Virus record (IMG/VR): IMGVR_UViG_3300027805_000015
Span: 1-59,798 of that record
Source: a virus
Taxonomy: Duplodnaviria > Caudoviricetes
Strand: one strand, 5' to 3'
DNA length: 59,798 nucleotides
Position numbers and translations under genes: made by a program. Shown piece by piece: positions 6,920 through 59,119 of this stretch. The notes beneath the pieces were generated by a model. It did no database searches, had not been told where the DNA came from, and saw nothing but the letters and a program-made list of their open reading frames with translations. Numbering within the stretch: position 1 is the stretch's first letter; each line of letters starts with the position of its first letter.

Positions 6920-7943
6920 GAATAAACACACCGCCCTCTCTGCTAGCAGAATAAAGACCCTAGAAAAATGTAGCTGGTCTTATTGGTGCAGCTATGTGTT
7001 AAAGCTCCCAGAGAAGAGTAACGATGGTGCTAATAGAGGCAACGTCGTTCACTTTACTTTGGACGTTTTAGCAAAAGCGAAAAGAAAGCATTACGTCCAA
7101 ACTATTCTAAAAGAAAAAGACGTATTTGTTATTCCTTCGGTTCGTAAGTTGATGCTCAGACACGCTAGAGATCATCGCGTATCAGATCCTGATAATATTG
7201 AGATGATCAAGCAGATGACCCTGACCGCATTAGAGTACGACTTCTGGGGCGATTCTAAACTAAAGCCTGTTAAAGATATCGGAGAAAGAGATTTTGACAT
7301 CACCGTAAATAAGGGCAAAAAGAATTATAGAATCAAAGGTTTTATCGATAGGCAGTTTATTTACGAAGACTTTACTTCTGTTGTCCGTGATTACAAAACG
7401 AGTAAGGCGGTATTTGCGGGCAAGGACGCAGAGGATAACTTGCAGCATCTGATGTATACCCTTGCTACAAAAAAACTCGATCCAGAGCACAACGTGTCGA
7501 TGGAATTCTTGTTTTTAAAGTTTTCTCTTAAGGATAAAGGCAAGGGAAGCGGCCTTCTGAGAATGGACCCGTTGTCTAAAAAAGATCTTACTGATTTTGA
7601 GAACCATCTTACAGAAGTGCAAAAGGTGGTTGATAACTTTAGCGAGGCAGATGCTTATTCAAATTTTGCTGCGGATAAGCCTATGCCCTCAGATGGCTCC
7701 TTTACTGGAAAGCTCTCATGCGGCTTTGCGAAATACAAGGGCCAGCTAAAGAAGGACGGCAACCCAATGTGGCATTGCCCTTTTAAATTTGGTTTTAATT
7801 ACTACGCTCTTAGAGACAAGGATAATAAGATTATCAAAACGTTTCTTGAAGATGATAAGGACGAAGCCTTTAAGTTAGCAAAGGCTGAACAAAAAGTTAC
7901 CAAAGAAACGTATCTTGGGTGTCCAAAGCACTTGACATCCTAG
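6912..7943 (+). CDS. RecB/AddB-family PD-(D/E)XK exonuclease
   Basis: LSASRIKTLEKC, GNVVH, KGFIDR, VRDYKTS, QHLMY and C-terminal Cys residues. Confidence 0.8.
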   Translation: MSENKHTALSASRIKTLEKCSWSYWCSYVLKLPEKSNDGANRGNVVHFTLDVLAKAKRKHYVQTILKEKDVFVIPSVRKLMLRHARDHRVSDPDNIEMIKQMTLTALEYDFWGDSKLKPVKDIGERDFDITVNKGKKNYRIKGFIDRQFIYEDFTSVVRDYKTSKAVFAGKDAEDNLQHLMYTLATKKLDPEHNVSMEFLFLKFSLKDKGKGSGLLRMDPLSKKDLTDFENHLTEVQKVVDNFSEADAYSNFAADKPMPSDGSFTGKLSCGFAKYKGQLKKDGNPMWHCPFKFGFNYYALRDKDNKIIKTFLEDDKDEAFKLAKAEQKVTKETYLGCPKHLTS

Positions 7944-7959
7944 CCATCCTTGGTAGGAT
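7932..7959 (+). promoter_or_regulatory. sigma70-type promoter
   Basis: TTGACA-16-TAGGAT with a TG extension; ATG 34 nt from the -35 box. Confidence 0.55.
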
Positions 7960-7965
7960 AGTGGT

Positions 7966-8700
7966 ATGATTCCACTATTCAAGTCCCACTTTTCTATCGG
8001 GAAAAGCATCTTGACTCTGGCAGAACCAGAAAAGCAAAAGAAAGATGGGCCAGACAGCATCCTATCCTTAGCTTTAGACAACGGGCTAAAGGAGCTTTAT
8101 CTTGTAGAGGATTCTCTTACAGGATTTTTGACAGCATTTAAAATCTGTCAAAAGTATGATCTGTCACTAAGGTTTGGGCTTAGAATCAGTATCTGTAATG
8201 ATTACCAGTCGATTGAATCTTCAAAAAGCAAGCTTGTATTGTTTGCCTTAAATGATCAAGGGTTCAAAGATATCAATAAAATCTACACCTTTGCTCATAC
8301 AAAAAATGACGGCTTAATCTCTAACGACGATCTAACATCTAGATTGAATCCAAACATCTTTGTTTGCGTCCCATTTTACGATTCTTATGTTTGGAATAAT
8401 TATCATTATTTTAATAATTGCACTCCATTTTTTCTGGATAACCTCGATCACGCTTACTTCACGGAAAATAATAAACTTCCTTTTGACCAGATTATTTCGA
8501 AGATAATCGAATCAAAGGGAAAGGAGATCATGCCTGTCAAGTCAATCTATTATAAAAATAGAGAAGATTACGAGGCATGGATTACTTATAAGATAGCTTG
8601 CAGTGGAACAATGGGAAGAAGCCGCACTTTATCGGCACCAGATCTAAGCGACTGTGGTAGTAAAGAATTCTGTTTTCAATCTTGGAAGGAGTCTTCATGA
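7966..8700 (+). CDS. Stand-alone PHP domain of DNA polymerase III alpha
   Basis: FKSHFSIGKSIL...LVEDSLTGF...FGLRI...LVLFALNDQGFKDI parallels the DnaE N-terminal PHP domain; metal ligands appear degenerate. Confidence 0.75.
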   Translation: MIPLFKSHFSIGKSILTLAEPEKQKKDGPDSILSLALDNGLKELYLVEDSLTGFLTAFKICQKYDLSLRFGLRISICNDYQSIESSKSKLVLFALNDQGFKDINKIYTFAHTKNDGLISNDDLTSRLNPNIFVCVPFYDSYVWNNYHYFNNCTPFFLDNLDHAYFTENNKLPFDQIISKIIESKGKEIMPVKSIYYKNREDYEAWITYKIACSGTMGRSRTLSAPDLSDCGSKEFCFQSWKESS

Positions 8701-16220: not shown

Positions 16221-16625
16221 ATGAACCTGACCTCATTAGCACCCGCAGGATTGGTAAGCGCCCAAAGCCCACTTACAGACCCAGTTATAATTGGGACAAT
16301 AAAGGAAGATATCTATACAATCAATGACGGTGTTGGGTTTGAAGTTGATCCGGGGAATGGGTCGATTCAATTGGTTGCTCTTGCCGCAAACCGCAGCCCA
16401 CAAGCTACTAATTTTCTTGCAGGCGAAAGCGTTACTTTGATGGTGGATGATGGCAGCGGCTACGCTTTGACTTGGACAGGAGCAACTTGGGGCACAGGCT
16501 CAATTAGCGGTGTTAGTTGGGTTGGCGGCAACGCGCCAGTTTTGGCGGCGACTGGGTATACTGTATTGCAGTTCTGGAAGATCGACACTAGAATTTACGG
16601 CGCTTTAGTTGGCAATGTTTTATGA
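16221..16625 (+). CDS. Putative virion fibre-associated protein
   Basis: Beta-rich sequence (GESVTLMVDDG...VSWVGGNAPVL...FWK...YGALVG); ATGA-coupled to the LamG protein. Confidence 0.55.
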   Translation: MNLTSLAPAGLVSAQSPLTDPVIIGTIKEDIYTINDGVGFEVDPGNGSIQLVALAANRSPQATNFLAGESVTLMVDDGSGYALTWTGATWGTGSISGVSWVGGNAPVLAATGYTVLQFWKIDTRIYGALVGNVL

Positions 16626-18673
16626 GGCATCACTTCGTAAGAAGCTCTGCGGGACTAAGAGACCCGAATTTTAAAAATGTAACGCTGTTGTTGCACGGAG
16701 ATGGAACAAACGGGGCACAGAATAATACATTTTTGGATAGTAGCGCAAGCAATAACGCCATCACTACAACTGGAAATGTAGCGCAGGGATCGTTTAGTCC
16801 TTATGGAGATAGATGGAGTGTAGCGCTTGCAGGAAGTTCAGCGCACTTAAGAAGCGCCAATAATGCAAATCTTAACATTGGCGCTTCAGATTTTACATTC
16901 GAGTGTTGGGCAAATGGGTCTTCTTTTTCTACTGATTGGGCTACATTTTTTGCCCGCTGGAATAGCAATGGAAATTATGGTTATTTTTTTAACTACGATA
17001 CTGATGGAGGACTTACTTTTATTTACTCCACAACTGGTTTAGCTGCTGGAAACGTAATCAGGGCTTATGGCGGAACAATGACAGTTGGCAAATGGCATCA
17101 TGTAGCCTTTTGTCGTTCTGGTGGCACTACTAGAGCATTTCTTGATGGAGTTCAAATCGGCTCATCAACATCAGATAATGTGACAATTTTTAACTCTAAT
17201 GGTCAGCAAGTGATTGGTGGAGTTCTTGATGCGTCCACAATATATCACCCATTCACTGGCTACATTTCTAATTTGCGACTTGTTATAGGAACAGCGCTTT
17301 ATACTTCAAATTTTACACCATCTTCGACTCCACTTACGGTTATTGCAAATACTAGAATACTAGCTTGCGCTTCAAATAGATTTGAAGACAAAAGTCCAAC
17401 AGCTTTGACTTTAAATCGAAACGGAACCCCATCTGTTCAGCGCTTTTCTCCATTTGGTCCAGATACTTTATACAGAACAGATAGAATTGGAGGCAGTGCG
17501 TATTTTGATGGTGGAGAATTTCTTCAAGTGGCAAATAGAGGCTTGAAACTAACTGCTGGCTTTTTTACGGCAGAGTGCTGGGTTTATATTTCTGCATATT
17601 CAGGTAATTTTTACGCTCTATTTGATGATTGGTATTGGCAAGGCGGGCACAATGGAGGGTGGAGGGTTTTTATTGATTCTCTGGGACGAATTGTTATGCA
17701 AGCCTCTAATGGAAACTGGAACAACTGGGGCGGCACATTTATAACTTCAAGCAATTCTGTAATTCTCAACCAATGGAATCACGTTGCAATAGTTAGGGGG
17801 GCTAATGATTTAATTAACATATACATAAATGGAATTTCAACAACAACTCCCGTCGCCAGAAAAGAATTAAATCTAAACAGCGGAAGTGCTCAAAGCGCTT
17901 GGCAAAGCAGAATCGGAATAAACGCAAGTGATGTTGTATTTGGAGGAGTTTATAATTATTCCTTTACTGGAACTATCTCTGACTTGAGAATCATCAATGG
18001 CAAATGTTTATATACTGCCAATTTTACCCCGCCAACTGAACCCCTAACAGCTATTCCAGAAACAACATTTTTGGGTAGATTCGCCAATGGCTCTATTGTA
18101 GACAATGCAATGATGAGTAGTTTGGAGACGGCTGGCACGGCTAGAATTAGTACTAGCCAAAAAAAGTATGGAACAGGGTCTCTTGAAATTTCTGGAAATG
18201 GCCTAAACTTTAGAAATACACCTAATTTTCAGTTCGGAACTGGCGACTTCACGCTAGAGTTTTGGCTTTGGCGTAGCAGCGGGGTCAATATGAACAACCG
18301 TATGGTCATCAGTTGCTGGGCCACAAACGGGTGGGGGATTCTTTTTGACGGATCGCAGCAGATTTCCTTGTCAATACCGACAGGATCTTGGGCAAACGTA
18401 GTGCGAGACCCATCGACGTTCCCTTCGGATCAATGGGTCCACGTAGCGGTAAGCCGCCAAACAGGCACAAGCCGCCTTTTCATCAACGGGACACTGGTGG
18501 CTAGCGCCGCAGATTCCAATAATTATGTTGCGACCGCGACCGTGAGGATCGGCACCTTAGACGGGGCAAACTGGAACTTCGTGGGCTACCTTGATGACCT
18601 CCGCATCACCAAAGGCGTAGCCCGCTACACCGCCAACTTCACCCCGCCCACCACCCCCCTGCCTGACTTTTAA
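16622..18673 (+). CDS. Fibre/adhesin with three concanavalin A-like (LamG) domains
   Basis: Three repeats of (D/F)FTxExW...WxHVA...xG(Y/T)xx(N/D)LR...YTxNFTP; N-terminal LLLHGDGTNG. Confidence 0.85.
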   Translation: MRHHFVRSSAGLRDPNFKNVTLLLHGDGTNGAQNNTFLDSSASNNAITTTGNVAQGSFSPYGDRWSVALAGSSAHLRSANNANLNIGASDFTFECWANGSSFSTDWATFFARWNSNGNYGYFFNYDTDGGLTFIYSTTGLAAGNVIRAYGGTMTVGKWHHVAFCRSGGTTRAFLDGVQIGSSTSDNVTIFNSNGQQVIGGVLDASTIYHPFTGYISNLRLVIGTALYTSNFTPSSTPLTVIANTRILACASNRFEDKSPTALTLNRNGTPSVQRFSPFGPDTLYRTDRIGGSAYFDGGEFLQVANRGLKLTAGFFTAECWVYISAYSGNFYALFDDWYWQGGHNGGWRVFIDSLGRIVMQASNGNWNNWGGTFITSSNSVILNQWNHVAIVRGANDLINIYINGISTTTPVARKELNLNSGSAQSAWQSRIGINASDVVFGGVYNYSFTGTISDLRIINGKCLYTANFTPPTEPLTAIPETTFLGRFANGSIVDNAMMSSLETAGTARISTSQKKYGTGSLEISGNGLNFRNTPNFQFGTGDFTLEFWLWRSSGVNMNNRMVISCWATNGWGILFDGSQQISLSIPTGSWANVVRDPSTFPSDQWVHVAVSRQTGTSRLFINGTLVASAADSNNYVATATVRIGTLDGANWNFVGYLDDLRITKGVARYTANFTPPTTPLPDF

Positions 18674-37949: not shown

Positions 37950-39451
37950 TGATTAATTGAATATTCTTCTGTTCCTGGGAATCCACCAAATGGCAATGAG
38001 GTTTGTTTGCCAAATCTAAATGAGCATCCAGTTAAGGTTCTTGAACATTGATCCGCCAACCAATAAACCTTATTAAAAAATGGGTGATTGTTTGACGAAC
38101 TTGTATGGTCTTTAATGCAGATATAAACTTTATTCAACGGCTCCCAATTTGGGATAGCGTTTATATCTTGCTTTGGGACTTTTACATTAAAGTTTTCCAA
38201 ATAAACGAAATCGCCAACTCTATACTGAGTTTTTAATTTCCATTTGGCTCGATCTCCCGAACCAAAATCAAATAAAGAATAACCGTCTAAAGCAACATTT
38301 TTAAATAAAGATATGTCTTTGCTAAATCTTTGGTTAGTTGTCATTTTCCCAGTTTCATCAATATCGTAATAAAATCTTGATGCTGGTATTGCAGTCCAAG
38401 TATCAGATCCAGGAGTTTTGTAGTACAAGCCTAAACCTTGCGGAGAAGTTGCGGCGGCACAGAAACGAATTAAAATTCTGTGATTGCCCTCTTGTAGCCA
38501 TTCTTGAATAACTTGAGTTCCTTTTGGGGCAGAGCCATTTTGATTGCCTCCACTATAGCTGCTAGCGACGACTCTTCCATTTAATAAAATATCGGCTGCG
38601 TCATCAGGATCAACGCCAAGAAAATATCTTCCAGCCTCTCCACGATCAACTCTAAAATAACCAAGAAATTCGTAGCTTTTGGACGTTTCGTTATCTACTG
38701 TCGCATTTGCGGTTACTGTTTCAGAAGGAGACGTAGAAGCTGCTAATTTTGCAGTAAAATCATCTGCGCTTGACGGCGCAGAGCCGTCATTACTATACTT
38801 TCTTCTGATCAATCCAGCGCGCATGTCTGTAGCATAAGATATTCTTACATCGTTTTCATCTGCTATTGGTGGGCCAGAATATCTACAACCAAGCCCACGA
38901 TAATGAAAAGAGCAATAACGAGACATCACGATCCTTTTTGGGAAGGTGACGTTCTCTAATTCAAGTGGCGAAGCCAACTCAAATTCCACTATAGATCTAG
39001 TTTCAGCAGACTTTCTGAGTATAAAAAATACTTGATCTTCCAGTCCCGCTGTCGAATCTGCGGAGCCGTAAGGATTTCTGCTTTCAGAAAAGTTCTGATT
39101 GTCTAAAAATTTTAAAAATGTTCTTTTTCTAACTACTTTAGCTCCAATCAGATTGCTGTGTCTTCTGAGTAAATTAGATATAAAAAAGTCTTGATTAGAT
39201 ACGGCTAGTTTGGGCCTAGGCAAGCTTCCGTCGCCTTTGCTTTCAAACCCTGAGCTTTGAATTGGAAATGGCGAATACTCTTGACCTTGCCAATAAATTG
39301 ACCCTTGTATTCCATTAGTTCCGCCATGAATGTAAAGTTTCTCATCAGGCTGATTAACGTAATCATAATAAATGACGAAGAATTCCAATAAAGCTGTTGG
39401 CTCTAGTGAGAAAAGCTCCGCATTGATCTTTTGATTAGACTGCCTTGACAT
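37946..39451 (-). CDS. Minor tail protein L with PA14 insertion
   Basis: WQGQEYSPFPIQSSGFE..GDGSLPRPKL, GAKVVRKRTFLKFLD, EFELASP, four Cys, FGGFPG. Confidence 0.9.
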   Translation of the reverse strand: MSRQSNQKINAELFSLEPTALLEFFVIYYDYVNQPDEKLYIHGGTNGIQGSIYWQGQEYSPFPIQSSGFESKGDGSLPRPKLAVSNQDFFISNLLRRHSNLIGAKVVRKRTFLKFLDNQNFSESRNPYGSADSTAGLEDQVFFILRKSAETRSIVEFELASPLELENVTFPKRIVMSRYCSFHYRGLGCRYSGPPIADENDVRISYATDMRAGLIRRKYSNDGSAPSSADDFTAKLAASTSPSETVTANATVDNETSKSYEFLGYFRVDRGEAGRYFLGVDPDDAADILLNGRVVASSYSGGNQNGSAPKGTQVIQEWLQEGNHRILIRFCAAATSPQGLGLYYKTPGSDTWTAIPASRFYYDIDETGKMTTNQRFSKDISLFKNVALDGYSLFDFGSGDRAKWKLKTQYRVGDFVYLENFNVKVPKQDINAIPNWEPLNKVYICIKDHTSSSNNHPFFNKVYWLADQCSRTLTGCSFRFGKQTSLPFGGFPGTEEYSINQ

Positions 39452-39472
39452 TTCCTTTTACCTTTAGATTAT

Positions 39473-39479
39473 ATTACAC
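39473..39479 (-). promoter_or_regulatory. GTGTAAW putative late promoter for the tail-tip operon
   Basis: GTGTAAT on the - strand, 28 nt upstream of the L start. Confidence 0.55.
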
Positions 39480-39481
39480 TT

Positions 39482-39964
39482 ATGGGTACTAAAAACCAAA
39501 TAAAAATAGAATCCTTTGAGATTCGCCCATTAAGAACCAATGATATTCCAGAAGTTCTAAGGTTAGCTATAAAAGCCCAAGGGGCATTCGGAATCACTTC
39601 TACCGTGTCTCCTTCTATGTTTTTTAAGGAGATTGCCGTTAATATTCAAAACAACTCAAAAAACTCTATAGTTTACGTGGCTCCTAATGGAGCCATTTTT
39701 TGTGTTTTGATTTTTAGACAGATAACTAGCTTGTCTGCGGAGTTAAGTTACGTATTCTCTGATCCCAAGGTCTATCAGAGCGAACAGATTAAAAATTCAG
39801 TATACGAGGTCTTTGCCAACTCCAAATATCCTGAGATATTTATAAATGTATTTAAAAAGAGAAAGCGGCTCAACGCTTTCTTAAAATTGCTGAAAACCTA
39901 TGGGTTTACGGAGGTTATGGAAGATAATGACGCTTTTCTAAAACTGAAGTTCAAAAAGGCTTGA
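39482..39964 (+). CDS. GNAT-like hypothetical protein
   Basis: EIRPLRTNDIPEV...LLKTYGF pattern. Confidence 0.45.
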   Translation: MGTKNQIKIESFEIRPLRTNDIPEVLRLAIKAQGAFGITSTVSPSMFFKEIAVNIQNNSKNSIVYVAPNGAIFCVLIFRQITSLSAELSYVFSDPKVYQSEQIKNSVYEVFANSKYPEIFINVFKKRKRLNAFLKLLKTYGFTEVMEDNDAFLKLKFKKA

Positions 39965-39987
39965 CAAGTTTTGAGAAATCGTATTCC
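39961..39987 (+). promoter_or_regulatory. sigma70-type promoter (weak -10)
   Basis: TTGACA exactly 35 nt upstream of ATG 39996. Confidence 0.4.
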
Positions 39988-39995
39988 CGTAGGGA

Positions 39996-40370
39996 ATGAG
40001 GTTTGAAAGATTGGTTCAGATAGCCAGAAGCCTAATCATCTATGATGGGGTTGACTTGCGTTGCCGTCACTTCGCATTCATCTTAAATAAAAACAAAATT
40101 GTTTCGATTGGCAAGAACTCTAAAAAGTCGCATCCAATTAACCAAAAGTATGGTTACTTTGATGGGAGTGGACTTCACGCAGAAGCTTGTGCGATCATTA
40201 AATCGGGCAAAGTTGATCACACCAGAAATACTTTGGTTACTTTTCGAATCGATAGGAATGACAAATTGGCAATGGGCAAACCTTGCAAACACTGCCAAAA
40301 GCTATTGAAAGATGTTGAGTTCAAAGAAATATACTATACCAACGAGCAAGGAGATTTCTGTAAAGCATGA
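39996..40370 (+). CDS. Zn-dependent cytidine/dCMP deaminase-family protein
   Basis: HAE and PCKHC motifs. Confidence 0.8.
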   Translation: MRFERLVQIARSLIIYDGVDLRCRHFAFILNKNKIVSIGKNSKKSHPINQKYGYFDGSGLHAEACAIIKSGKVDHTRNTLVTFRIDRNDKLAMGKPCKHCQKLLKDVEFKEIYYTNEQGDFCKA

Positions 40371-43419: not shown

Positions 43420-43573
43420 GGCATATCGGGGCTCCAAAGCTTTTGATACGTCTTGCCGAAATCATGGAAGCTGCTCTTGGTGCGAAGACAATAGATTTTA
43501 TTCAGAAAAAAAGCGCAAGGCTTCTGCTAAAGAGCAGCTTGATCGGTATTACGATTACTACGACGAGCAATAA
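43376..43573 (+). CDS. Small conserved Cys/His phage protein
   Basis: SKAFDTSCRNHGSCSWCEDNR. Confidence 0.55.
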   Translation: MSLEKAIKHNKEKRKAYRGSKAFDTSCRNHGSCSWCEDNRFYSEKKRKASAKEQLDRYYDYYDEQ

Positions 43574-44241
43574 TGCCTTACCTTAACGCAAATATTCCTG
43601 TTTTTACCGCTTATTTAAAAAGCGACTTTCTTTATAACGAAGAAAATAAGACCACAGATTATGTTCTGTGCGAGGTTCTTGGCATCACAAGCTTAACAAG
43701 ACGATGCTTAACCTTTCAAATAATGACAGAGTATGGCTCTCGTCACGATAGAGTCCCGATTCACTATCTTGTAAATGATCCAATCCATCAAAATTATCCA
43801 TTAGATTGGCTCCAGCTTTGGGACTGCTATTCTAATTCTCTATCAGTCACAAGATACGAGTACCATAAAAATTCAGCAGTCAAGATACAGCTAAAGAATC
43901 GTGAATGGGTAAATGGCAAATATTTGTTTACCGTTGATTGGCACGACAACCCAGACGCTCCATACGGCTATTCTGAAATGGCAGGAGGTCACAAATGTGG
44001 GCATCTGATATGGGGACTGTCAACCAGCAATGGAGAGCCTGTAAACCAACTGTTTTTCCAACCAAATAATAGAATATTGTGGAAAGACGGCGGCGCATTT
44101 ATCTCAAAGAAATTCGACAAGAAGCCAGACTGGAAAGTTTTTGATAAGGAATTTTCTTGTGAAGGGTCTAGCAAATGGGAAGCGGAAGATAATTGGGACT
44201 ACTTCTACCAGTTCAATCATGAACAAGAATCTGATAAATAA
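43573..44241 (+). CDS. Conserved phage hypothetical protein
   Basis: MPYLNANIP...LQLWDC...GKYLFTVDW...HKCGH...QPNNRI family pattern. Confidence 0.65.
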   Translation: MPYLNANIPVFTAYLKSDFLYNEENKTTDYVLCEVLGITSLTRRCLTFQIMTEYGSRHDRVPIHYLVNDPIHQNYPLDWLQLWDCYSNSLSVTRYEYHKNSAVKIQLKNREWVNGKYLFTVDWHDNPDAPYGYSEMAGGHKCGHLIWGLSTSNGEPVNQLFFQPNNRILWKDGGAFISKKFDKKPDWKVFDKEFSCEGSSKWEAEDNWDYFYQFNHEQESDK

Positions 44242-44704
44242 GATAGTGGTATGCGCTTTAGTCGCCCTGTTGGTTTTTGTCTATTTTTATAGACCAAAAA
44301 AGACAGAATACGAAGTTTTTTATTTTGAAAACGAACAAAAATTAGCTTTAGCCCTCCAAGCTAAGTCGCTCCAAACTGGAGGGCGTCCAGTTTTTGTTTT
44401 GCCTACAGGATCAATGCGTCCAACCGTACAAGATTACGACTACGTTATCATTATCCCTCCTTCTGAACAACCGTATGACAGCATCGAAGAAGGCGACATT
44501 GTGATGTATAAGGCTGAATGGACGACTCAAGATATTCCAGTTTTGCATCGAGCAGTAACCAAAGATCGGTGGGGTTGGATCATGAAAGGCGACAACCCAA
44601 ATAATTCATATGAAAATAAAAGTAGAGTGACGGCGCAGAATTATCTTGGCAAACTGCATTCAATCTATAGGCTGAAAACGAATGATCGAAGTCCAAATAA
44701 GTAA
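44219..44704 (+). CDS. S26 signal peptidase I (Ser/His type)
   Basis: N-terminal TM segment, TGSMRPT, GDIVMY, VLHR, KGDN. Confidence 0.8.
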   Translation: MNKNLINKIVVCALVALLVFVYFYRPKKTEYEVFYFENEQKLALALQAKSLQTGGRPVFVLPTGSMRPTVQDYDYVIIIPPSEQPYDSIEEGDIVMYKAEWTTQDIPVLHRAVTKDRWGWIMKGDNPNNSYENKSRVTAQNYLGKLHSIYRLKTNDRSPNK

Positions 44705-45170
44705 AGATATGGTCAGCGAAGCCCTTGAGAGGGCGGCGCAAGTACCTTTGCTGAGAAATTCTGACACTAACGGTCACGGGCAAAAGATCGCAGCTTTGAG
44801 TGATCTTATGGTTCAGAAGACTTGGGGCGGCAGAATCATGTCCAATAAAAGCTACGATTTTGATTGGATCTCTCCCAAGTTATTTTTATTTGAAATAAAA
44901 GCCAAGGAGCGGAACGTTGTTCCCCAACCTTGGCACAACTGCGCGGTCAAAGAATACAATACTAAACAGCAATGCGATTACTATCTTTTTACCAGCATCT
45001 TTGGGGATTACAGCAGAGGCTGGATTCTCGGCTACATTAAGAAAGAAAAGTTTTTTGATTTAGCTGAATTTTATAAGAGTGGAGAAGTTGACCCCGATCC
45101 TCGCGGAGACAAATACGTTTTCCCCTCAAGCTGCTACAATTTAAAAATCGAACAGTTAACTTCTAATTAA
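44682..45170 (+). CDS. PD-(D/E)XK nuclease-like protein
   Basis: YDFD...FEIKAK...CDYYLF...GWILGY. Confidence 0.5.
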   Translation: MIEVQISKDMVSEALERAAQVPLLRNSDTNGHGQKIAALSDLMVQKTWGGRIMSNKSYDFDWISPKLFLFEIKAKERNVVPQPWHNCAVKEYNTKQQCDYYLFTSIFGDYSRGWILGYIKKEKFFDLAEFYKSGEVDPDPRGDKYVFPSSCYNLKIEQLTSN

Positions 45171-45178
45171 TAAAAAAA

Positions 45179-45571
45179 ATGGGCCACTACATTCCAACTA
45201 GATACAAGTATATTCACAATAAATTTTTCAATAGGCAGTTTAAAAATATTGATCAATCAAAAATCTTTTTTTCTTCAGAAGATGAAGATTTGAGGTCGCA
45301 TTTAGCCGATTTGATAAATGATGACGGATTCTTGCAGCTAAGATGCCAACAGGATTTTTTGTTTGCTGTTCATTTGGAAATTGCGGACAGAATGGGATGG
45401 AATCCCGAAAGAAGCAGAAGATTTTGCGTAACCCACATCAATGGCAACAGAATGGACAACCGTAGAGAAAATTTAAAATTAGTCACTCGGTCAGAACTTA
45501 AAGCGATAGCTAAGGAAAGAAAAAATAATCAAAAAAATCTATTGACAGAAGCACATTCTTGCGTAACTTAA
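45179..45571 (+). CDS. HNH endonuclease-like protein, possibly degenerate
   Basis: VTHINGNRMDNRRENLKLVT. Confidence 0.65.
   Translation: MGHYIPTRYKYIHNKFFNRQFKNIDQSKIFFSSEDEDLRSHLADLINDDGFLQLRCQQDFLFAVHLEIADRMGWNPERSRRFCVTHINGNRMDNRRENLKLVTRSELKAIAKERKNNQKNLLTEAHSCVT
45542..45569 (+). promoter_or_regulatory. sigma70-type promoter of uvsE
   Basis: TTGACA-16-TAACTT; ATG 7 nt after the -10 box. Confidence 0.6.
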
Positions 45572-45576
45572 CCAGT

Positions 45577-46497
45577 ATGCAACTCTCACTTTGCTGCATC
45601 TCCAACGTTCTTGCCGAGCGCGGAATCAAGTTCCAGACTATGACTCTGACTCGTTTCCTTGCGCTCCCTCGCGCCGAGGCTATTCGCACTCTCAGCGAGC
45701 GCATCCTCAACAACTTCATCGTTACCAATGCAACTATTCAATACTGCGCCAATTGCGGTATTGCTGGCTATCGCTTGTCGTCCTCTCTTGCCCCTGTCAT
45801 CGACCATCCTGACGTTAACTTACGTCTGCAAGATTTGCCTAATTGGCCTGACCTTCGCGCTGCTCTCGACGCCATCTCTCGCACCATCAAGCTTACCGGC
45901 GTTCGCGTCTCTGCTCACCCTTCAGAGTACATCACCTTGACCAGCAATGACGCCTCCGCAGTCAACAACAGCATCACCGATCTTGCTTCACACGCTGATC
46001 TGTTCGACTTGCTCGACTTGCCTAACGACTACCGCTCTCCCCTCAACATTCACTGCCGTCAAGACGGCGATCCTGCCGAGGTTTCGCAGCGTTTCCTTTC
46101 CAACTTCAATCGCCTGCCCAGCAACGTTCGTTCTCGCCTTGTGCTAGAGGTCAACGACAACGTTAACGGCACTTGGTCCGTCTCTAACCTTCACAAATAT
46201 TTCTTTCTGACCGCAGGAATTCCAATCACTTACGATTCCTTGCACCGTCAGTTCTGCAATCACGGCAACGATGACCGCGCTGACTTCGACCTTGCCTACT
46301 CTACTTGGCCCACAGTTCCTCTTTTTCATTACTCAGAAGGTATTGACAATACTCGTAAGCACGCTCTCATGCCTTCTAGCGTCCCTAACTCTTACGGTCG
46401 CCCTGTATTTTTCGACGTAGAACTCAAGAACAAAGACTATGCCATCTATCAAATCCTCCGCAACATCCAAGCTCCAAAGCCAATTAATAACGATTAA
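45577..46497 (+). CDS. uvsE: UV DNA damage endonuclease
   Basis: YRLSS, RVSAHPSEY, NIH, RLVLEVND, PITYDSLH, FHYSE, HA, DVELKNKD. Confidence 0.9.
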   Translation: MQLSLCCISNVLAERGIKFQTMTLTRFLALPRAEAIRTLSERILNNFIVTNATIQYCANCGIAGYRLSSSLAPVIDHPDVNLRLQDLPNWPDLRAALDAISRTIKLTGVRVSAHPSEYITLTSNDASAVNNSITDLASHADLFDLLDLPNDYRSPLNIHCRQDGDPAEVSQRFLSNFNRLPSNVRSRLVLEVNDNVNGTWSVSNLHKYFFLTAGIPITYDSLHRQFCNHGNDDRADFDLAYSTWPTVPLFHYSEGIDNTRKHALMPSSVPNSYGRPVFFDVELKNKDYAIYQILRNIQAPKPINND

Positions 46498-46795
46498 AAA
46501 TCAGGTCGAGGAGACTTTATCGCAAAAGAATTTGCGCTTTGAGAGCGCACCTTTAGAAATCGAAAACGAAACAGAAGACGAAAAGATTATCGGCTATACG
46601 ATAAAGACATCTCAAATCTCTGCGTCGATCATTCCAAATTTTAGAAACAGAAAAATAGAATTTCTTGTTCTGAACGAGAAGATGATCGAGCACCTTTTGC
46701 AAGAAGGCTTCTCTGACGAAGAGATTATGGCTAATGGTAGAGTTTGGTTTCACTTGAAGAAGAAGAGCGACTTTTTAAAATTGGTCTCAAATTAA
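46439..46795 (+). CDS. Hypothetical protein
   Basis: ORF overlapping the uvsE 3' end; start uncertain. Confidence 0.5.
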   Translation: MPSIKSSATSKLQSQLITIKNQVEETLSQKNLRFESAPLEIENETEDEKIIGYTIKTSQISASIIPNFRNRKIEFLVLNEKMIEHLLQEGFSDEEIMANGRVWFHLKKKSDFLKLVSN

Positions 46796-46805
46796 TTCAT
46801 AAAAA

Positions 46806-47042
46806 ATGAAGTTCAATCCAATCTTTAGCTCAAAGGATGTCAAAGAGGTTTACGAGATGTACAATCTACTCAGCGAGGGATTTTTAAAGAATTTTAAATA
46901 CCAAGCTGAGTTCAGAATTACTACCTCTTCTTTTAAGAGCGACTTTGTTCTGAGTGCCGAATACTCCTCGGAAATCGAGCGTAAGTGGCTGGAAGATAAG
47001 GTTCTGGAGATTTCTTCAGAAAAAGTTAAGAAAACCTCTTGA
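46806..47042 (+). CDS. Hypothetical protein
   Basis: Packed ORF. Confidence 0.55.
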   Translation: MKFNPIFSSKDVKEVYEMYNLLSEGFLKNFKYQAEFRITTSSFKSDFVLSAEYSSEIERKWLEDKVLEISSEKVKKTS

Positions 47043-47067
47043 CGAACGCTGTGCCTTGTGGCACATT
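47039..47067 (+). promoter_or_regulatory. sigma70-type promoter
   Basis: TTGACG-17-CACATT upstream of rIIA. Confidence 0.5.
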
Positions 47068-47090
47068 AGGCGTGTAATCAAATTGCTCCA

Positions 47091-56787: not shown

Positions 56788-57060
56788 ATGGCGACCAAAT
56801 TCGACGAGAAGCTAATCAAAGAAATCGTTGGTTCGCCACATAATTATTGGCTTACCGTCAAAGCGTCAAAAGATATCAAGGTTGAGATTGACATTTGCAG
56901 AGTTGTAGATTGGAATTGGGACTTGCCCAAGGCTCGCCCAACGCTAAAGCAAGCAATGCAAGATATTGTCGCTCACGCTTACTGGATGGGGCGAGAAGAA
57001 GAAAGAAAGCTTTATTCCAATACTTTAAAGAGAATGATCGATGGCAAACTTGATACTTGA
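56788..57060 (+). CDS. Hypothetical protein
   Basis: ORF. Confidence 0.55.
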   Translation: MATKFDEKLIKEIVGSPHNYWLTVKASKDIKVEIDICRVVDWNWDLPKARPTLKQAMQDIVAHAYWMGREEERKLYSNTLKRMIDGKLDT

Positions 57061-57091
57061 CTAATATCGCTACTTAGTAAAAACACAAGAA

Positions 57092-57289
57092 ATGAAAACG
57101 TTTCCTGAACATCCATTCGTTGAAGGTGACAGACTTGTTCACGTTAAAAGTGGACAACTCGCCACATTCACTGGTACTCGCAAGGAAGTCAAAGGATGCG
57201 ATTTCGATTTCTTTGATTTTGACAACGGGTCTTGTTGCTTCTTTTCTCCCTGCGAAGTTGCCGAGGAATTCAAACCATTAGCCAAATAA
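57092..57289 (+). CDS. Hypothetical protein
   Basis: ORF with TTGACT 35 nt upstream. Confidence 0.55.
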   Translation: MKTFPEHPFVEGDRLVHVKSGQLATFTGTRKEVKGCDFDFFDFDNGSCCFFSPCEVAEEFKPLAK

Positions 57290-57322: not shown

Positions 57323-57820
57323 ATGAAAAAGAAAACAGACGCAGAAACTATCGAGTATTACAAGAACGAAGTTAAGCGACTTCATAATCAGCTTAATTTT
57401 AAGTTTCAATCTGATCCCGTAGCTCATCGCGCTTCTATCAAAGAAGATCAACGGCTTTATCGTAAGGTAGGTAAGAAGTTCGTGCCAGATAATGACCCTT
57501 ATGCTTATGAGGGGCTTCGCAATGGCTTTTGGCTAATTCACATTAAGGATGGTTCTACCTCTATTCGCCAAGAGATTTATCCAGACAAGGCGCACATCTC
57601 TGCTGCTGCTCGCGTAATGGAAGATAAGCTGGTTGAAATTATTCGCAAGGCTGGAGAGGCTCGGCCCACAAAGACCCCTCTTACTGAGGAAGAAAAGAAG
57701 GACTGGGATAAGTTTATCAAGAAGCACGGCGAAGCTTTCAATATGCTTACTTATCCTTCTATGCAAGAGAATGCTGAAAAGATTGTTGCAGCTTTGCTCG
57801 GTAATGAGGTACAGCCGTGA
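57323..57820 (+). CDS. Hypothetical protein
   Basis: LYRKVGKKFVP...GFWLI phage-type motif. Confidence 0.6.
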   Translation: MKKKTDAETIEYYKNEVKRLHNQLNFKFQSDPVAHRASIKEDQRLYRKVGKKFVPDNDPYAYEGLRNGFWLIHIKDGSTSIRQEIYPDKAHISAAARVMEDKLVEIIRKAGEARPTKTPLTEEEKKDWDKFIKKHGEAFNMLTYPSMQENAEKIVAALLGNEVQP

Positions 57821-58605: not shown

Positions 58606-59049
58606 ATGAGAAAATATAGAGAATATTCAGATCAAGACATAATCAACAATTCAAAAAACGTTAAGTCAATCGCTGGACTTTTAAAAAGTTTAAATTTAGC
58701 TGCCGTTGGCGGCAACTACAAAAACATAAAAAGATTAATTCAGAAGCTCAACATTGACACCTCTCATTGGACGGGTCAAGGTTGGAACAAAGATCAGCGA
58801 ACAAAAGATTGGTCTAAATACACAAAAGCTTTTCGTTTTAAAAAACATTTAATTAGCGAAAAAGGCCACAAATGCGAATCTTGCGACTTGACACATTGGA
58901 AAAAAGAACTAATCTCTTTAGAAATTCACCATATTGATGGCGACGCATCAAACAACGAAAAAAATAATCTTCAGTTACTTTGTCCCAATTGTCACTCCTT
59001 AACAGACAATTATAGGGGAAGAAAAAACAAAAGCGGTGATATGGCGTAA
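58606..59049 (+). CDS. HNH homing endonuclease
   Basis: IDTSHWTGQGW...CESC...LEIHHIDG...NN...NLQLLCPNCHS. Confidence 0.88.
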   Translation: MRKYREYSDQDIINNSKNVKSIAGLLKSLNLAAVGGNYKNIKRLIQKLNIDTSHWTGQGWNKDQRTKDWSKYTKAFRFKKHLISEKGHKCESCDLTHWKKELISLEIHHIDGDASNNEKNNLQLLCPNCHSLTDNYRGRKNKSGDMA

Positions 59050-59119
59050 TGGTAGCCGCAAAAGTCTTAAAAACTTTTGGATTAAATCCGTCTGGGTTCG
59101 AGTCCCAGTATCACCACCA
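59035..59119 (+). tRNA. tRNA-Leu(UAA)
   Basis: GGTGATA/TATCACC, AAAGT-CTTAAAA-ACTTT, long variable arm, GTTCGAGT, CCA. Confidence 0.9.

Follow-up and report, generated by a model that had tools for sequence, protein, structure and literature searches.

The window analysed here is a stretch of 59,798 nucleotides of viral DNA (Caudoviricetes) in which the following genes surround uvsE, the subject of this analysis:

45179..45571, plus strand, HNH endonuclease gene directly 5' of uvsE (Pfam HNH_3)
45577..46497, plus strand, uvsE, encoding a UvdE-family UV damage endonuclease of 306 aa (Pfam PF03851, PDB matches, composition)
46439..46795, plus strand, conserved downstream gene of 118 aa without family assignment (tblastn synteny in at least 20 loci)
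47091..49142, plus strand, rIIA (PHROG 612; Y3 0.68, synonymous dipurine ratio 0.88)
49174..50286, plus strand, rIIB (PHROG 609; Y3 0.73)

The uvsE product matches the UvdE profile PF03851 with 121.4 bits (cut-off 24; profile positions 8-255 of 275) and is homologous to the solved UVDE structures 3tc3 of Sulfolobus acidocaldarius (E 4.3e-24) and 2j6v of Thermus thermophilus (E 2.8e-9), the match being full-length. Residues H114, E117, H159, E191, D220, H223, H251 and E254 are invariant in the family alignment and align with 3tc3; these conserved His, Glu and Asp residues presumably include the metal-binding and catalytic residues of the family. Judged from these matches, uvsE is an intact UvdE-family UV-damage endonuclease gene. 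The start of the downstream gene overlaps the final 59 nt of uvsE, and the upstream HNH gene is present in some relatives and absent in others, i.e., it is optional and mobile. No close cultured phage was found by DNA comparison, and the uvsE protein is at most 29% identical to those in 25 phage records. In an attempt to identify the host, the nearest cultured matches of the phage polymerase were merely 26-29% identical. A major capsid gene, sought as a translational reference, was not found in the window, nor did Pfam PF05065 (capsid) have a match in three related contigs, with L015 and L014 lying outside that search.

The coding strand of uvsE comprises 307 C, 251 T, 202 A and 161 G. Its purine fraction of 0.39 is the lowest among the 56 ORFs of at least 300 nt in the window (mean 0.53, sd 0.036), and it ranks first likewise by dipurine density (0.150 vs 0.304). 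Against a null in which the protein was kept and codons were drawn from window usage, uvsE contains 0.668 of the expected dipurines (z -8.8, rank 1 of 56), which bears out the suspicion that it is an outlier: no other gene of the window is as poor in purines and in dipurines. In three related contigs it also ranks first by dipurine depletion (of 60, 50 and 46). Relative to other genes, GG is reduced to 0.38, AA and AG to 0.48 and GA to 0.58, each below the minimum of 43 other genes, and depletion at the synonymous level covers all four dipurines, including AA (0.70, z -4.5). Compared with an ordinarily composed version of the gene, the template strand of uvsE certainly has only about half as many dipyrimidine (photodimer) sites.

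The hand counts of the initial annotation proved exact. AAA occurs four times in 921 nt, only at 46195, 46432, 46451 and 46476; purines number 41 of 120 at 45781-45900 vs 62 of 120 at 45181-45300; the 306 aa include seven Lys and eight Glu (rIIB, 21 Lys in 370 aa); and Arg is encoded by 14 CGC and seven CGT codons, with AGR at zero. At the window rate 38.6 AAA would be expected, and none of 589 sliding 921-nt windows has four or fewer (minimum 7). Three of the four AAA lie at or beside the overlap with the downstream gene: two fall within it and the third 7 nt before it. The skew begins at the uvsE start codon, where the purine fraction per 90 nt falls from 0.60-0.68 to 0.40, and ceases within the last ~60 nt of the gene, where the downstream gene overlaps. 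Chance as the source of this composition is ruled out by the z of -8.8, the rank of 1 among 56 and the 0 of 589 sliding windows, and an assembly artefact by dozens of independent viral contigs in which the gene and its skew recur. An overlapping or antisense gene was likewise rejected as the cause, antisense and out-of-frame ORFs inside uvsE being at most 93 aa long. Other low-purine ORFs across 62 viral loci are all short and spurious-looking.

Phage-encoded tRNAs generally serve codons that are frequent in a phage and rare in its host. Five such tRNAs are encoded in the window (ARAGORN):

53110..53263, plus strand, tRNA-Arg(TCT) and tRNA-Met(CAT)
54116..54273, plus strand, tRNA-Lys(TTT) and tRNA-Ile(TAT)
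59035..59119, plus strand, tRNA-Leu(TAA)

Relatives carry the same set, to which one adds Gly-TCC and Thr-TGT. Most window genes use the tRNA-served codons heavily, whereas uvsE and rIIB avoid them: the phage-tRNA codon share among Leu, Lys, Ile and Arg codons is 0.036 in uvsE (rank 3 of 55; median 0.32), 0.012 in rIIB and 0.126 in rIIA. The avoiders of AGA, AAA, ATA and TTA are uvsE, rIIB, rIIA and the genes at 50869-51195, 52442-52768 and 57323-57820, and the codon-by-codon shift of uvsE and the rII genes runs in the same direction. Two-fold NAY codons of uvsE also favour C over T (e.g., AAC 0.70 vs 0.34). uvsE thus belongs to a small codon class that avoids the A-ending codons served by phage tRNAs and prefers C-ending ones. 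The scarcity of AAA and the use of CGN instead of AGA, which had been put forward as specialities of uvsE, arise because this class avoids phage-tRNA codons, and they are common to rIIB, rIIA and the three small genes. What is unique to uvsE is its low total purine content, not the lack of AAA and AGA. Genes of the class, uvsE among them, would be translatable by the host tRNA pool alone; this first layer does not give a low purine content, since the gene at 50869-51195 contains zero phage-tRNA codons and yet has a purine fraction of 0.53.

Beyond the shared codon class, uvsE adds an amino-acid purge, avoidance of G-ending codons and a neighbour-dependent placement of purines. The gene has lost about half its Lys and Glu, the replacements being Arg-CGY, Ala, Thr, Asn and Val, and the loss was one-way, as the uvsE of the window gained zero Lys and just one Glu. 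Lys and Glu make up 4.9% of its residues, compared with 10.7-13.8% in five cultured-phage homologues and 10.8-13.5% in two cellular ones, the comparison that the initial annotation had called for; likewise, 39% of its coding strand is purine, vs 48-54% in cultured-phage and 50-52% in cellular homologues. A GC-driven amino-acid shift is ruled out, as Asn, Ile, Phe and Tyr are undepleted and only Lys and Glu are affected. Across ten sequences of the uvsE clade, third positions are purines at a frequency of 0.274, 0.128 and 0.032 with zero, one and two purine neighbours, whereas the corresponding values in 22 other window genes are 0.338, 0.466 and 0.464; in the uvsE of the window alone the trend is weak (0.185, 0.157 and 0.111). 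At codon junctions, the clade avoids G|G (z about -3) and G|A, is enriched in A|G and is unchanged in A|A, and the effect in the window's own uvsE is again weak (ratio 0.93, z -0.9). One-way Lys/Glu loss, G-ending codon avoidance and context-bound third-position purines are unique to uvsE; the rII genes show neither the Lys/Glu loss nor the context effect. The earlier claim that both codon and amino-acid choice were affected holds, and sequence context has to be added to it.

The Lys/Glu loss could alternatively be a protein-level adaptation, e.g., of surface charge, of stability or for escape from Lys modification, and be unrelated to the nucleotide bias. Charged residues have dropped from about 69 to 55 per 300 aa, and the remaining Lys and Glu sit at family-invariant positions (E117, E191, E254, E282, K284 and K286), both of which would suit such an adaptation. 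However, in the same clade the loss coincides with changes at synonymous sites and in context that likewise avoid purines, and Asp and Arg (CGY) have risen while Glu and Lys fell, so that charge was partly kept via codons with fewer purines. We therefore regard a purely protein-level cause as improbable.

Among relatives sampled from the 62 viral loci, all uvsE genes at least 76% identical to that of the window have purine fractions of 0.38-0.41 and Y3 of 0.77-0.81, and their GC3 drifts between 0.47 and 0.66 despite this steady Y3. Four-fold sites differ at 53-59% between subclades, which is near saturation, and Y/Y pairs at these sites are identical in 46 and different in 41 cases. The purine-poor state is derived and arose once; it is graded across the phage tree, and sister clades (47-60% identity), from similar phages, are hardly skewed. 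Two loci of these sister clades (L049 and L056) have a perfect sigma-70 promoter and yet are hardly skewed. The skew was held while synonymous sites became nearly saturated, in support of the selection claimed by the initial annotation: by this comparative reading, selection on the nucleotide sequence drove the uvsE coding strand towards pyrimidines and maintains that state. An apparent intron in locus L005 was ruled out, the long match being a tandem duplication of window positions 46165-46600.

A recent import, not yet ameliorated, from a donor that was GC-rich or of otherwise different composition might seem to account for the same composition, given that the GC content of uvsE is 0.51 vs 0.40 for the window and that uvsE alleles have been reshuffled among phages; in locus L011, for instance, HNH is 98% and rIIA 90% identical to the window, and uvsE just 81%. 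In a scan for cellular homologues that covered one genome for each of 185,579 species, only five uvsE loci were found, all of normal composition. Of these, the two most similar to the window's gene (58% and 53%) come from short MAG contigs, with rIIA/rIIB present on one, and true cellular homologues are at most 39% identical; no close cellular homologue sharing the composition, the circumstance named as refuting the initial reading, turned up among these genomes. As the skew is moreover derived and graded on the phage tree, and was retained after four-fold sites had been nearly randomised between C and T, we reject recent import as a very remote prospect.

Two promoter-like elements precede uvsE:

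45542..45547, plus strand, TTGACA, a -35-like hexamer 29 nt 5' of the ATG (alignment)
45564..45569, plus strand, TAACTT, a possible -10 (TANNNT), separated from the -35 by 16 nt and from the ATG by 7 nt (sequence)

TTGAC stands at a fixed distance from the uvsE ATG in ten of ten aligned clade members, and a Shine-Dalgarno sequence is absent upstream of uvsE, both in the sequence and in the clade alignment. This absence, together with a possible -10 hexamer only 7 nt from the ATG, makes the arrangement compatible with a leaderless mRNA that would start at or next to the ATG. Of the adjacent host-type promoter proposed earlier, the conserved TTGACA and the lack of a Shine-Dalgarno sequence stand, but the candidate -10 hexamer is not kept in all clade members. 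The pattern TTGAC-N29-33-ATG has 14 matches in all, of which five end on ORF starts. The genes at 7966, 39482 and 39996 share the TTGACA-to-ATG geometry and are neither skewed nor in the codon class, which rules out the skew as a general trait of leaderless genes with host promoters.

The composition could also reflect selection on the mRNA, i.e., for a C-rich, G-poor, weakly folded transcript without purine-rich motifs. The avoided motifs would be Shine-Dalgarno-like sites or the cleavage sites of a purine-specific RNase or toxin, and such a transcript would suit a leaderless message that needs instant translation or has to outlast early-mRNA decay. Predicted folding points in this direction: the mean MFE of uvsE is -29.9 kcal per 150 nt, vs -41 to -42 for rII stretches of equal GC, so that despite 51% GC its mRNA folds as weakly as AT-rich genes. 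G is specifically avoided at third positions (5.8% vs 16.6% in rII) and, through G|G, at codon junctions, and the lack of a Shine-Dalgarno sequence and the leaderless start geometry agree with this explanation as well. However, it gives no reason why uvsE alone is affected when genes with the same promoter geometry are unskewed, initiation requires only an open 5' end and not 900 nt of open mRNA, and a candidate nuclease or motif is lacking (Rfam returned no known RNA element in the uvsE region). We consider selection on the mRNA unlikely as the cause.

The initial annotation had interpreted the skew as UV resistance. According to this idea, adjacent purines were removed from the coding strand so that the template offers few dipyrimidine sites, and a sunlight-damaged genome could still be transcribed through uvsE by host RNA polymerase before repair; the phage lineage would have rewritten codons and amino acids of uvsE to halve photodimer sites on the transcribed strand, sparing expression. 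According to PMC6042481, the RNA polymerases of E. coli and T7 are blocked by lesions in the template strand but not by those in the non-template strand, and UV target size in T7 is selectable. UV hardening is the sole hypothesis that says why uvsE alone is extreme, ranking first in the window and in three contigs. It is further favoured by the synonymous depletion of all four dipurines, AA too, by the one-way loss of Lys and Glu, whose codons are all-purine, by the isolation of most surviving third-position purines, and by a skew that spans promoter to stop exactly, with a putative leader of about 0 nt, and was maintained past synonymous saturation.

The details fit less well. Depletion is not weighted by photoreactivity: the expected weighting towards template TT (coding AA) did not appear, as GG (template CC) is the most depleted dipurine, at 0.38 of other genes compared with 0.48 for AA, Asn (AAY, template TT) has risen by 4.4 per 300 aa, and the junction effect of the clade concerns G|G and G|A but leaves A|A unchanged and A|G enriched, being weak in the window's own gene. 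The sister clades are near normal, the extreme state has a single evolutionary origin, and the C-over-T bias in two-fold codons demands another force anyway. A real, selected skew that halves template dimer sites thus remains of the UV interpretation, without the TT weighting and without hardening in the sister clades. UV protection is possible as one among several explanations of the skew, and the rewriting that it implies strikes us as conceivable though doubtful.

Unrelated phage UV endonuclease genes provide a further comparison, in which several lie at the extremes of their genomes. By synonymous dipurine ratio, T4 denV ranks first of 208 genes (0.79), Aeromonas phage uvsE second of 232, and two Vibrio phage uvsE genes fourth of 122 and third of 144; the codon-junction ranks are 1 of 173, 5 of 232, and 3 of 122 and 6 of 144, respectively. 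In denV, all 12 Arg codons are CGT, all seven Gly codons are GGY and 82% of third positions in four-fold boxes are pyrimidines, and the gene departs from the purine-ending codons preferred by gp23 (CTG 0 vs 0.59, CCA/CCG 0.20 vs 0.90, GTA 0.14 vs 0.52), a departure that, like the ranks, would favour UV hardening. However, AA is undepleted in the Vibrio and Aeromonas phage genes (1.02-1.03), whose AGR/GGR avoidance is common with capsid genes, the AA ratio is 0.98 over 17 T4-like denV loci, all four dipurine ratios of 17 environmental denV loci lie at 0.93-0.99, and the uvsE genes of Bacillus phage SP-15 and a Dickeya phage show no dipurine depletion (0.99 and 0.98). The suggestion that other uvsE and denV genes share the skew agrees with the ranks in T4, Aeromonas and Vibrio phages, but these ranks come mainly from AGR/GGR avoidance, with AA undepleted, and family-wide UV hardening, promising by rank, was set aside once it weakened on splitting by dinucleotide. 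Other phage UV-endonuclease genes, T4 denV among them, may bear weaker traces of the same pressure. The denV gene itself belongs to an unrelated protein family, shows a much weaker effect without the amino-acid purge, and has a purine fraction of 0.47 (rank 7 of 208), AA being undepleted across its T4-like relatives.

The explanation that we tentatively prefer, while stopping short of calling it probable, is that two layers both allow the repair enzyme to be expressed at once and self-sufficiently, in the first wave, from the genome as it enters. The first layer combines the avoidance of phage-tRNA codons, which would leave the gene translatable by host tRNAs, with a TTGACA of the gene's own, placed so that transcription would start at or near the ATG; the second, found only in uvsE, consists of the Lys/Glu loss, the avoidance of G-ending codons and the isolated third-position purines, and its cause can only be suggested. 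Such expression would draw on the RNA polymerase and the tRNAs of the host and on an mRNA that is C-rich and weakly structured. In cultured phages the lowest synonymous dipurine ratios belong to capsid and decoration genes, hence the low-dipurine signature goes with strong expression. First-wave expression agrees with the first rank of uvsE among the 56 ORFs of the window and in three related contigs, and with the preference for C over T in NAY codons, which template dimers cannot explain. On the other hand, the first layer alone leaves purine content normal (0.53 at 50869-51195), neither the Lys/Glu loss nor the context effect is seen in the rII genes, and the three genes of the same promoter geometry (7966, 39482 and 39996) are unskewed and outside the codon class. 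Translational selection does not predict third-position purines only between pyrimidines, the -10 hexamer varies within the clade, and first-wave expression is silent on why a repair enzyme is the extreme gene.

Purine loading of coding strands is known as Szybalski's rule. It holds for the remaining window genes, whose purine fraction averages 0.53, whereas uvsE reverses it, as a pyrimidine-loaded gene in a purine-loaded genome. Strand-specific dinucleotides or target size have been tied to UV damage and transcription in PMC8002178 and in the T7 study PMC6042481. The former describes a TT strand asymmetry in human exons and introns, with that of exons ascribed to codon usage and not attributed to selection for UV tolerance, the latter concerns evolution of target size by deletion and not by recoding, and neither reports a repair gene depleted of template dimer sites. 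In the open-access papers searched, no description of template-strand dimer-site depletion in a repair gene was found.

Sunlight is a main cause of the loss of phage infectivity in surface waters. If UV hardening were true, uvsE would be a clear case of a gene sequence selected for a lower damage cross-section of one strand, a kind of robustness that phage ecology does not take into account, and would make it possible to recognise, from a sequence signature, those genes whose action is needed first on a damaged genome. Under an ordinary reading, too, it is a repair enzyme that shows stronger codon and amino-acid bias than any other gene of its genome, and the window clearly exemplifies two codon classes that are linked to tRNAs encoded by the phage. 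An unexpected result of the comparison was the position of denV, which at synonymous sites is more depleted of dipurines than any other T4 gene.

The 306-amino-acid product of uvsE matches Pfam UvdE (PF03851; 121 bits, cut-off 24) and, among solved structures, UV damage endonucleases 3tc3 (E 4e-24) and 2j6v. The gene belongs to an uncultured tailed phage, and elsewhere the window encodes a DnaE-type polymerase, a Lon-like protease, ribonucleotide reductase, J-type tail fibre proteins, a UvsX-like recombinase, a sigma factor, rIIA and rIIB. A DNA search with the window returned no close cultured phage, the uvsE protein is at most 29% identical to 25 phage records, and the best matches of the polymerase lie at 26-29% identity. 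Gene order from the ferredoxin-like gene to rIIB is kept in relatives, apart from an optional HNH gene:

43573-44241, ferredoxin-like gene, first in the local order
44682-45170, open reading frame (ORF) between the ferredoxin-like gene and the HNH endonuclease
45179-45571, HNH endonuclease, directly before uvsE, optional among relatives
45577-46497 (+), uvsE, Pfam UvdE
46439-46795, 118-amino-acid gene of no known family, starting within the 3' end of uvsE (59-nt overlap)
46806-47042, ORF between the preceding gene and rIIA
47091-49142, rIIA, followed by rIIB

The 118-amino-acid gene sits downstream of uvsE in all members checked of the clade, i.e., the pyrimidine-loaded uvsE relatives of at least 76% protein identity. 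Among relatives, loci L002, L004, L011 and L015 included, some have the HNH gene and others lack it; it reaches 98% identity in phages whose uvsE shares only 81%, a sign that the gene is mobile and that the uvsE region has a mosaic history. In one related locus (L005:2075-3620) the 3' part of uvsE is tandemly duplicated together with the beginning of the gene after it (window 46165-46600; 436 nt, 92.7% identity); the repeat may be genuine or may come from two strains joined in assembly.

The initial annotation had proposed that uvsE avoids purine runs so that a UV-damaged template strand can still transcribe its own repair gene, and all of its hand counts were exact on recount. AAA occurs in uvsE only at 46195, 46432, 46451 and 46476, purines make up 41/120 nt within the gene vs. 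62/120 in the upstream neighbour, and the protein has 7 Lys and 8 Glu, its Arg being encoded by 14 CGC and 7 CGT; rIIB has 21 Lys in 370 amino acids. At the window rate 38.6 AAA are expected per 921 nt, and the lowest count in 589 sliding segments of that length is 7. The base counts of uvsE are C 307, T 251, A 202 and G 161. Of 76 mechanically listed ORFs, none is poorer in purines (fraction 0.395) or dipurines (density 0.150) than uvsE or ends more of its codons in a pyrimidine (share 0.795), and uvsE also ranks first for purine fraction and dipurine density among the 56 ORFs of at least 300 nt. Against a control that encodes the same protein with the codon usage of the window, it remained the outlier among these 56 (observed/expected dipurines 0.668, z -8.8). 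Each of the four dipurines is rarer in uvsE than in any of 43 other genes, and the purine fractions at codon positions 1, 2 and 3 are 0.52, 0.46 and 0.21, compared with means of 0.63, 0.53 and 0.44 in other genes. The skew sets in at the start codon and ends about 60 nt before the stop, at the overlap with 46439-46795; two of the four AAA lie inside the 59-nt overlap and a third 7 nt upstream of it.

Dipurine density is 0.24-0.28 per nt in ordinary homologues, would be 0.21 for the uvsE protein written in window codons, and is 0.15 as observed; by our estimate, about half of the total deficit stems from amino-acid change and about half from synonymous change. The reduction of template-strand dimer sites to about half is real. 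Purine poverty also leaves the mRNA with weak predicted folding (-29.9 kcal/150 nt vs. -41 to -42 for rII stretches of equal GC), and weak folding could itself have been selected. An Rfam search of the region gave no match, nor did any long conserved ORF show up within uvsE in antisense or out of frame.

Two layers can be distinguished in this composition, the first of which is a codon class shared with the rII genes. The window carries the following tRNA genes, and related contigs have an identical set, to which one adds Gly(TCC) and Thr(TGT):

53110-53263, tRNA-Arg(TCT) and tRNA-Met(CAT)
54116-54273, tRNA-Lys(TTT) and tRNA-Ile(TAT)
59035-59119, tRNA-Leu(TAA)

All but tRNA-Met serve A-ending codons (AGA, AAA, ATA and TTA), and these are the codons avoided by uvsE, rIIA and rIIB.

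Share of phage-tRNA codons among their synonyms (uvsE; rII; rest of window)
AGA of Arg: 0; 0.20; 0.47
ATA of Ile: 0; 0.01; 0.20
TTA of Leu: 0.03; 0.02; 0.21
AAA of Lys: 0.29; 0.18; 0.54

Class score (joint share of AGA, AAA, ATA and TTA among Leu, Lys, Ile and Arg codons; 55 genes)
50869-51195: 0
rIIB: 0.012
uvsE: 0.036 (rank 3 of 55)
52442-52768: 0.037
57323-57820: 0.059
rIIA: 0.126
Median of 55 genes: 0.32

The scarcity of AAA and absence of AGA noted initially therefore hold for uvsE but are not special to it, being a property of the class. The avoidance is best interpreted as an adaptation to translation with host tRNAs alone. It does not account for the low purine content, since 50869-51195, which lacks these codons altogether, has a purine fraction of 0.53. 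In two-fold codons uvsE prefers C over T (AAC 0.70, GAC 0.70, TTC 0.77 vs. 0.34, 0.34 and 0.29), a choice that template-strand dimers cannot explain. The genome as a whole divides into codon classes around the tRNAs, with GC3 of 0.17-0.30 in tail genes and 0.52-0.60 in the rII/uvsE block.

Upstream of uvsE, TTGACA at 45542-45547 is followed 16 nt later by TAACTT (TANNNT-type), which ends 7 nt before the ATG, and no Shine-Dalgarno sequence was seen ahead of the gene. TTGAC, with an A-rich stretch ahead of it, is kept at this distance from the ATG in 10/10 aligned clade members, across which the -10 hexamer is not conserved. The pattern TTGAC-N29-33-ATG has 14 matches in the window (10.9 expected), five of which end exactly on ORF starts (7966, 39482, 39996, 45577 and 57092). 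These five have the form TTGAC(A/T)-N29-32-ATG without a Shine-Dalgarno sequence:

7932-7968
39445-39484
39961-39998
45542-45579
57057-57094

A leaderless arrangement thus seems to be used repeatedly, and the motifs suggest leaderless transcripts from sigma-70-like promoters; for uvsE, the putative transcript start and timing are likewise read from sequence. Of the other four genes, those starting at 7966, 39482 and 39996 have no purine shortage and fall outside the codon class, and 57092-57289 is too short to judge. Two relatives with a weaker skew, L049 and L056, carry a terminator, a perfect TTGACA-17-TATAAT promoter and a Shine-Dalgarno sequence.

The second layer is specific to uvsE. Pyrimidine-ending codons fill 84% of its four-fold boxes (rII 75%, elsewhere 58%) and G-ending codons 5.8% (rII 16.6%, elsewhere 11.2%). 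The reported shortage of Lys and Glu is borne out relative to homologues: compared with 82 homologues of <63% identity, the 21 skewed sequences are poorer by 9.2 Lys and 10.0 Glu per 300 amino acids, with Ala, Thr, Asn, Val, Arg and Pro raised. At 16 sites where distant homologues agree on Lys the query retains 6 and has Arg at 5, and at 12 such Glu sites it retains 5; it gains no Lys and one Glu, and the retained residues include family-invariant positions. This loss is not a GC effect, since Asn, Ile, Phe and Tyr, which also have AT-rich codons, are not depleted. Purine third positions in four-fold boxes fall from 0.274 to 0.128 and 0.032 with zero, one and two purine neighbours (10 clade sequences), vs. 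0.338, 0.466 and 0.464 in 22 other window genes, and are flat in rIIA and rIIB. With synonymous codons permuted within each gene, purine-purine junctions give ratios of 0.68-0.87 in clade members and about 1.0-1.08 in flanking genes, and none of 35 flanking ORFs is lower than clade uvsE. The ratio of the query is just 0.93 (z -0.9), still the lowest of 56. Within the clade, G-to-G (z about -3) and G-to-A junctions are depleted, A-to-G enriched and A-to-A unchanged.

The initial observation is fully confirmed and proves stronger than could be seen at first: the compositional state extends through the clade, is derived, is under maintaining selection and occurs in no other gene. Scanning viral contigs yielded 62 loci. 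Every sampled relative with a protein identity of at least 76% has purine fractions of 0.38-0.41 and a pyrimidine share at third positions (Y3) of 0.77-0.81, with 5-9 Lys and 5-9 Glu each in full-length members. Three loci at 72% identity are intermediate (purine 0.46, Y3 0.64; the two that are full-length have 12 Lys and 14 Glu), at 57-60% purine is 0.49 and Y3 0.59-0.60, and loci at 47-50% are ordinary (purine 0.51-0.53, about 20 Lys and 20 Glu). Maximum-likelihood analysis groups the skewed genes in a single clade (15 rows, support 98/95) with the intermediate locus as sister and ordinary phage and cellular genes outside, indicating a derived state of single origin. Four-fold sites differ between subclades at 53-59%, pyrimidine pairs at such sites are nearly evenly split (46 identical, 41 different), and Y3 stays near 0.8 while GC3 spans 0.47-0.66; such constancy despite divergence and drift shows that the purine/pyrimidine axis is actively held.

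One genome for each of 185,579 species yielded only five uvsE loci, two on short MAG contigs (58% and 53% identity) and three at ≤43%, one of them merely a partial match. All four full-length loci have normal composition, so the skew is not inherited baggage, and a recent import with donor composition is contradicted by these homologues together with the derived clade and maintained Y3. The two MAG contigs, labelled Kapaibacterium (L063, with rIIA- and rIIB-like genes adjoining uvsE) and Saccharibacteria (L064), are probably phage contigs binned with bacteria.

The UV idea was also tested on other phage repair genes, several of which rank low in their genomes. By synonymous dipurine ratio, uvsE of Aeromonas phage avDM12 ranks 2/232 (0.814), of Vibrio phages 249E41-1 and R16F 4/122 (0.874) and 3/144 (0.882), and denV of T4 1/208 (0.793; next ORF 0.865), whereas Bacillus phage SP-15 and a Dickeya phage, scored against flanks only, show no effect (0.99 and 0.98). 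The genes below uvsE in the cultured phages encode major capsid and decoration proteins, so a low ratio is also a mark of strong expression. The junction statistic does not depend on codon usage; by this measure T4 denV ranks 1/173 by ratio (17 by z), the Vibrio genes 3/122 and 6/144 and the Aeromonas gene 5/232; capsid genes are not low except in the Aeromonas phage. Negative z values occur in 83% of 47 denV loci, whose mean percentile against flanking ORFs is 0.30. These ranks seemed to favour UV selection, but a breakdown by dinucleotide weakens the case, as AA depletion (0.67-0.71) is confined to the window's clade. In the Vibrio and Aeromonas uvsE genes AA is 1.02-1.03 and the deficit lies in GA, AG and GG, owing to avoidance of AGR and GGR codons common to capsid genes; 17 T4-like denV loci sum to AA 0.98, GA 0.82, AG 0.83 and GG 0.98, and 17 environmental denV loci to 0.93-0.99 throughout. 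As template TT (coding AA) is the main dimer site (PMC8002178), these patterns lack the photochemical weighting that UV selection predicts. T4 denV (NC_000866, 64939-65355 (-); locus L113, regions L193-L201) is still suggestive as a single case: Arg is CGT in 12/12 and Gly GGY in 7/7, four-fold boxes have 82% pyrimidine third positions, and it avoids purine-ending codons preferred by gp23 (CTG, CCA/CCG and GTA).

The initial interpretation is supported in part. Protection of the template from UV is a possible but less favoured main cause of the uvsE-specific layer, and it alone explains why a repair gene is the one affected. The halving of dimer sites is real, but four points weigh against this cause: no weighting towards TT is seen, the sister clades are not hardened, comparison across repair-gene families gave no clean support, and part of the evidence first cited belongs to the tRNA-linked class common to rII. 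We tentatively favour a composite reading, plausible yet short of probable, in which uvsE is shaped for autonomous expression and UV protection is at most a contributing benefit. The remaining probability falls to mRNA-level, protein-level or historical causes. The literature searched holds no published account of such a gene.

Further compositional and structural differences were seen along the window. In related contigs (L009-L045) rIIA is just 37-50% identical while uvsE is 72-90% and neighbouring genes 77-95% identical, so phages that are otherwise alike carry two strongly diverged types of rIIA. Towards its 5' end rIIA, too, is rich in pyrimidines (purine fraction 0.40-0.44 in 300-nt segments), and this part contains an antisense ORF of 205 amino acids (47016-47633 (-)) that is probably no gene but a consequence of the stop-poor composition. 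Genes at 16221-18673, with PHROG matches to baseplate wedge or virion structural proteins, have unusually low Lys+Glu (0.03-0.04) and higher GC (0.44-0.49), a composition unlike that of the tail module at 27.9-39.4 kb.
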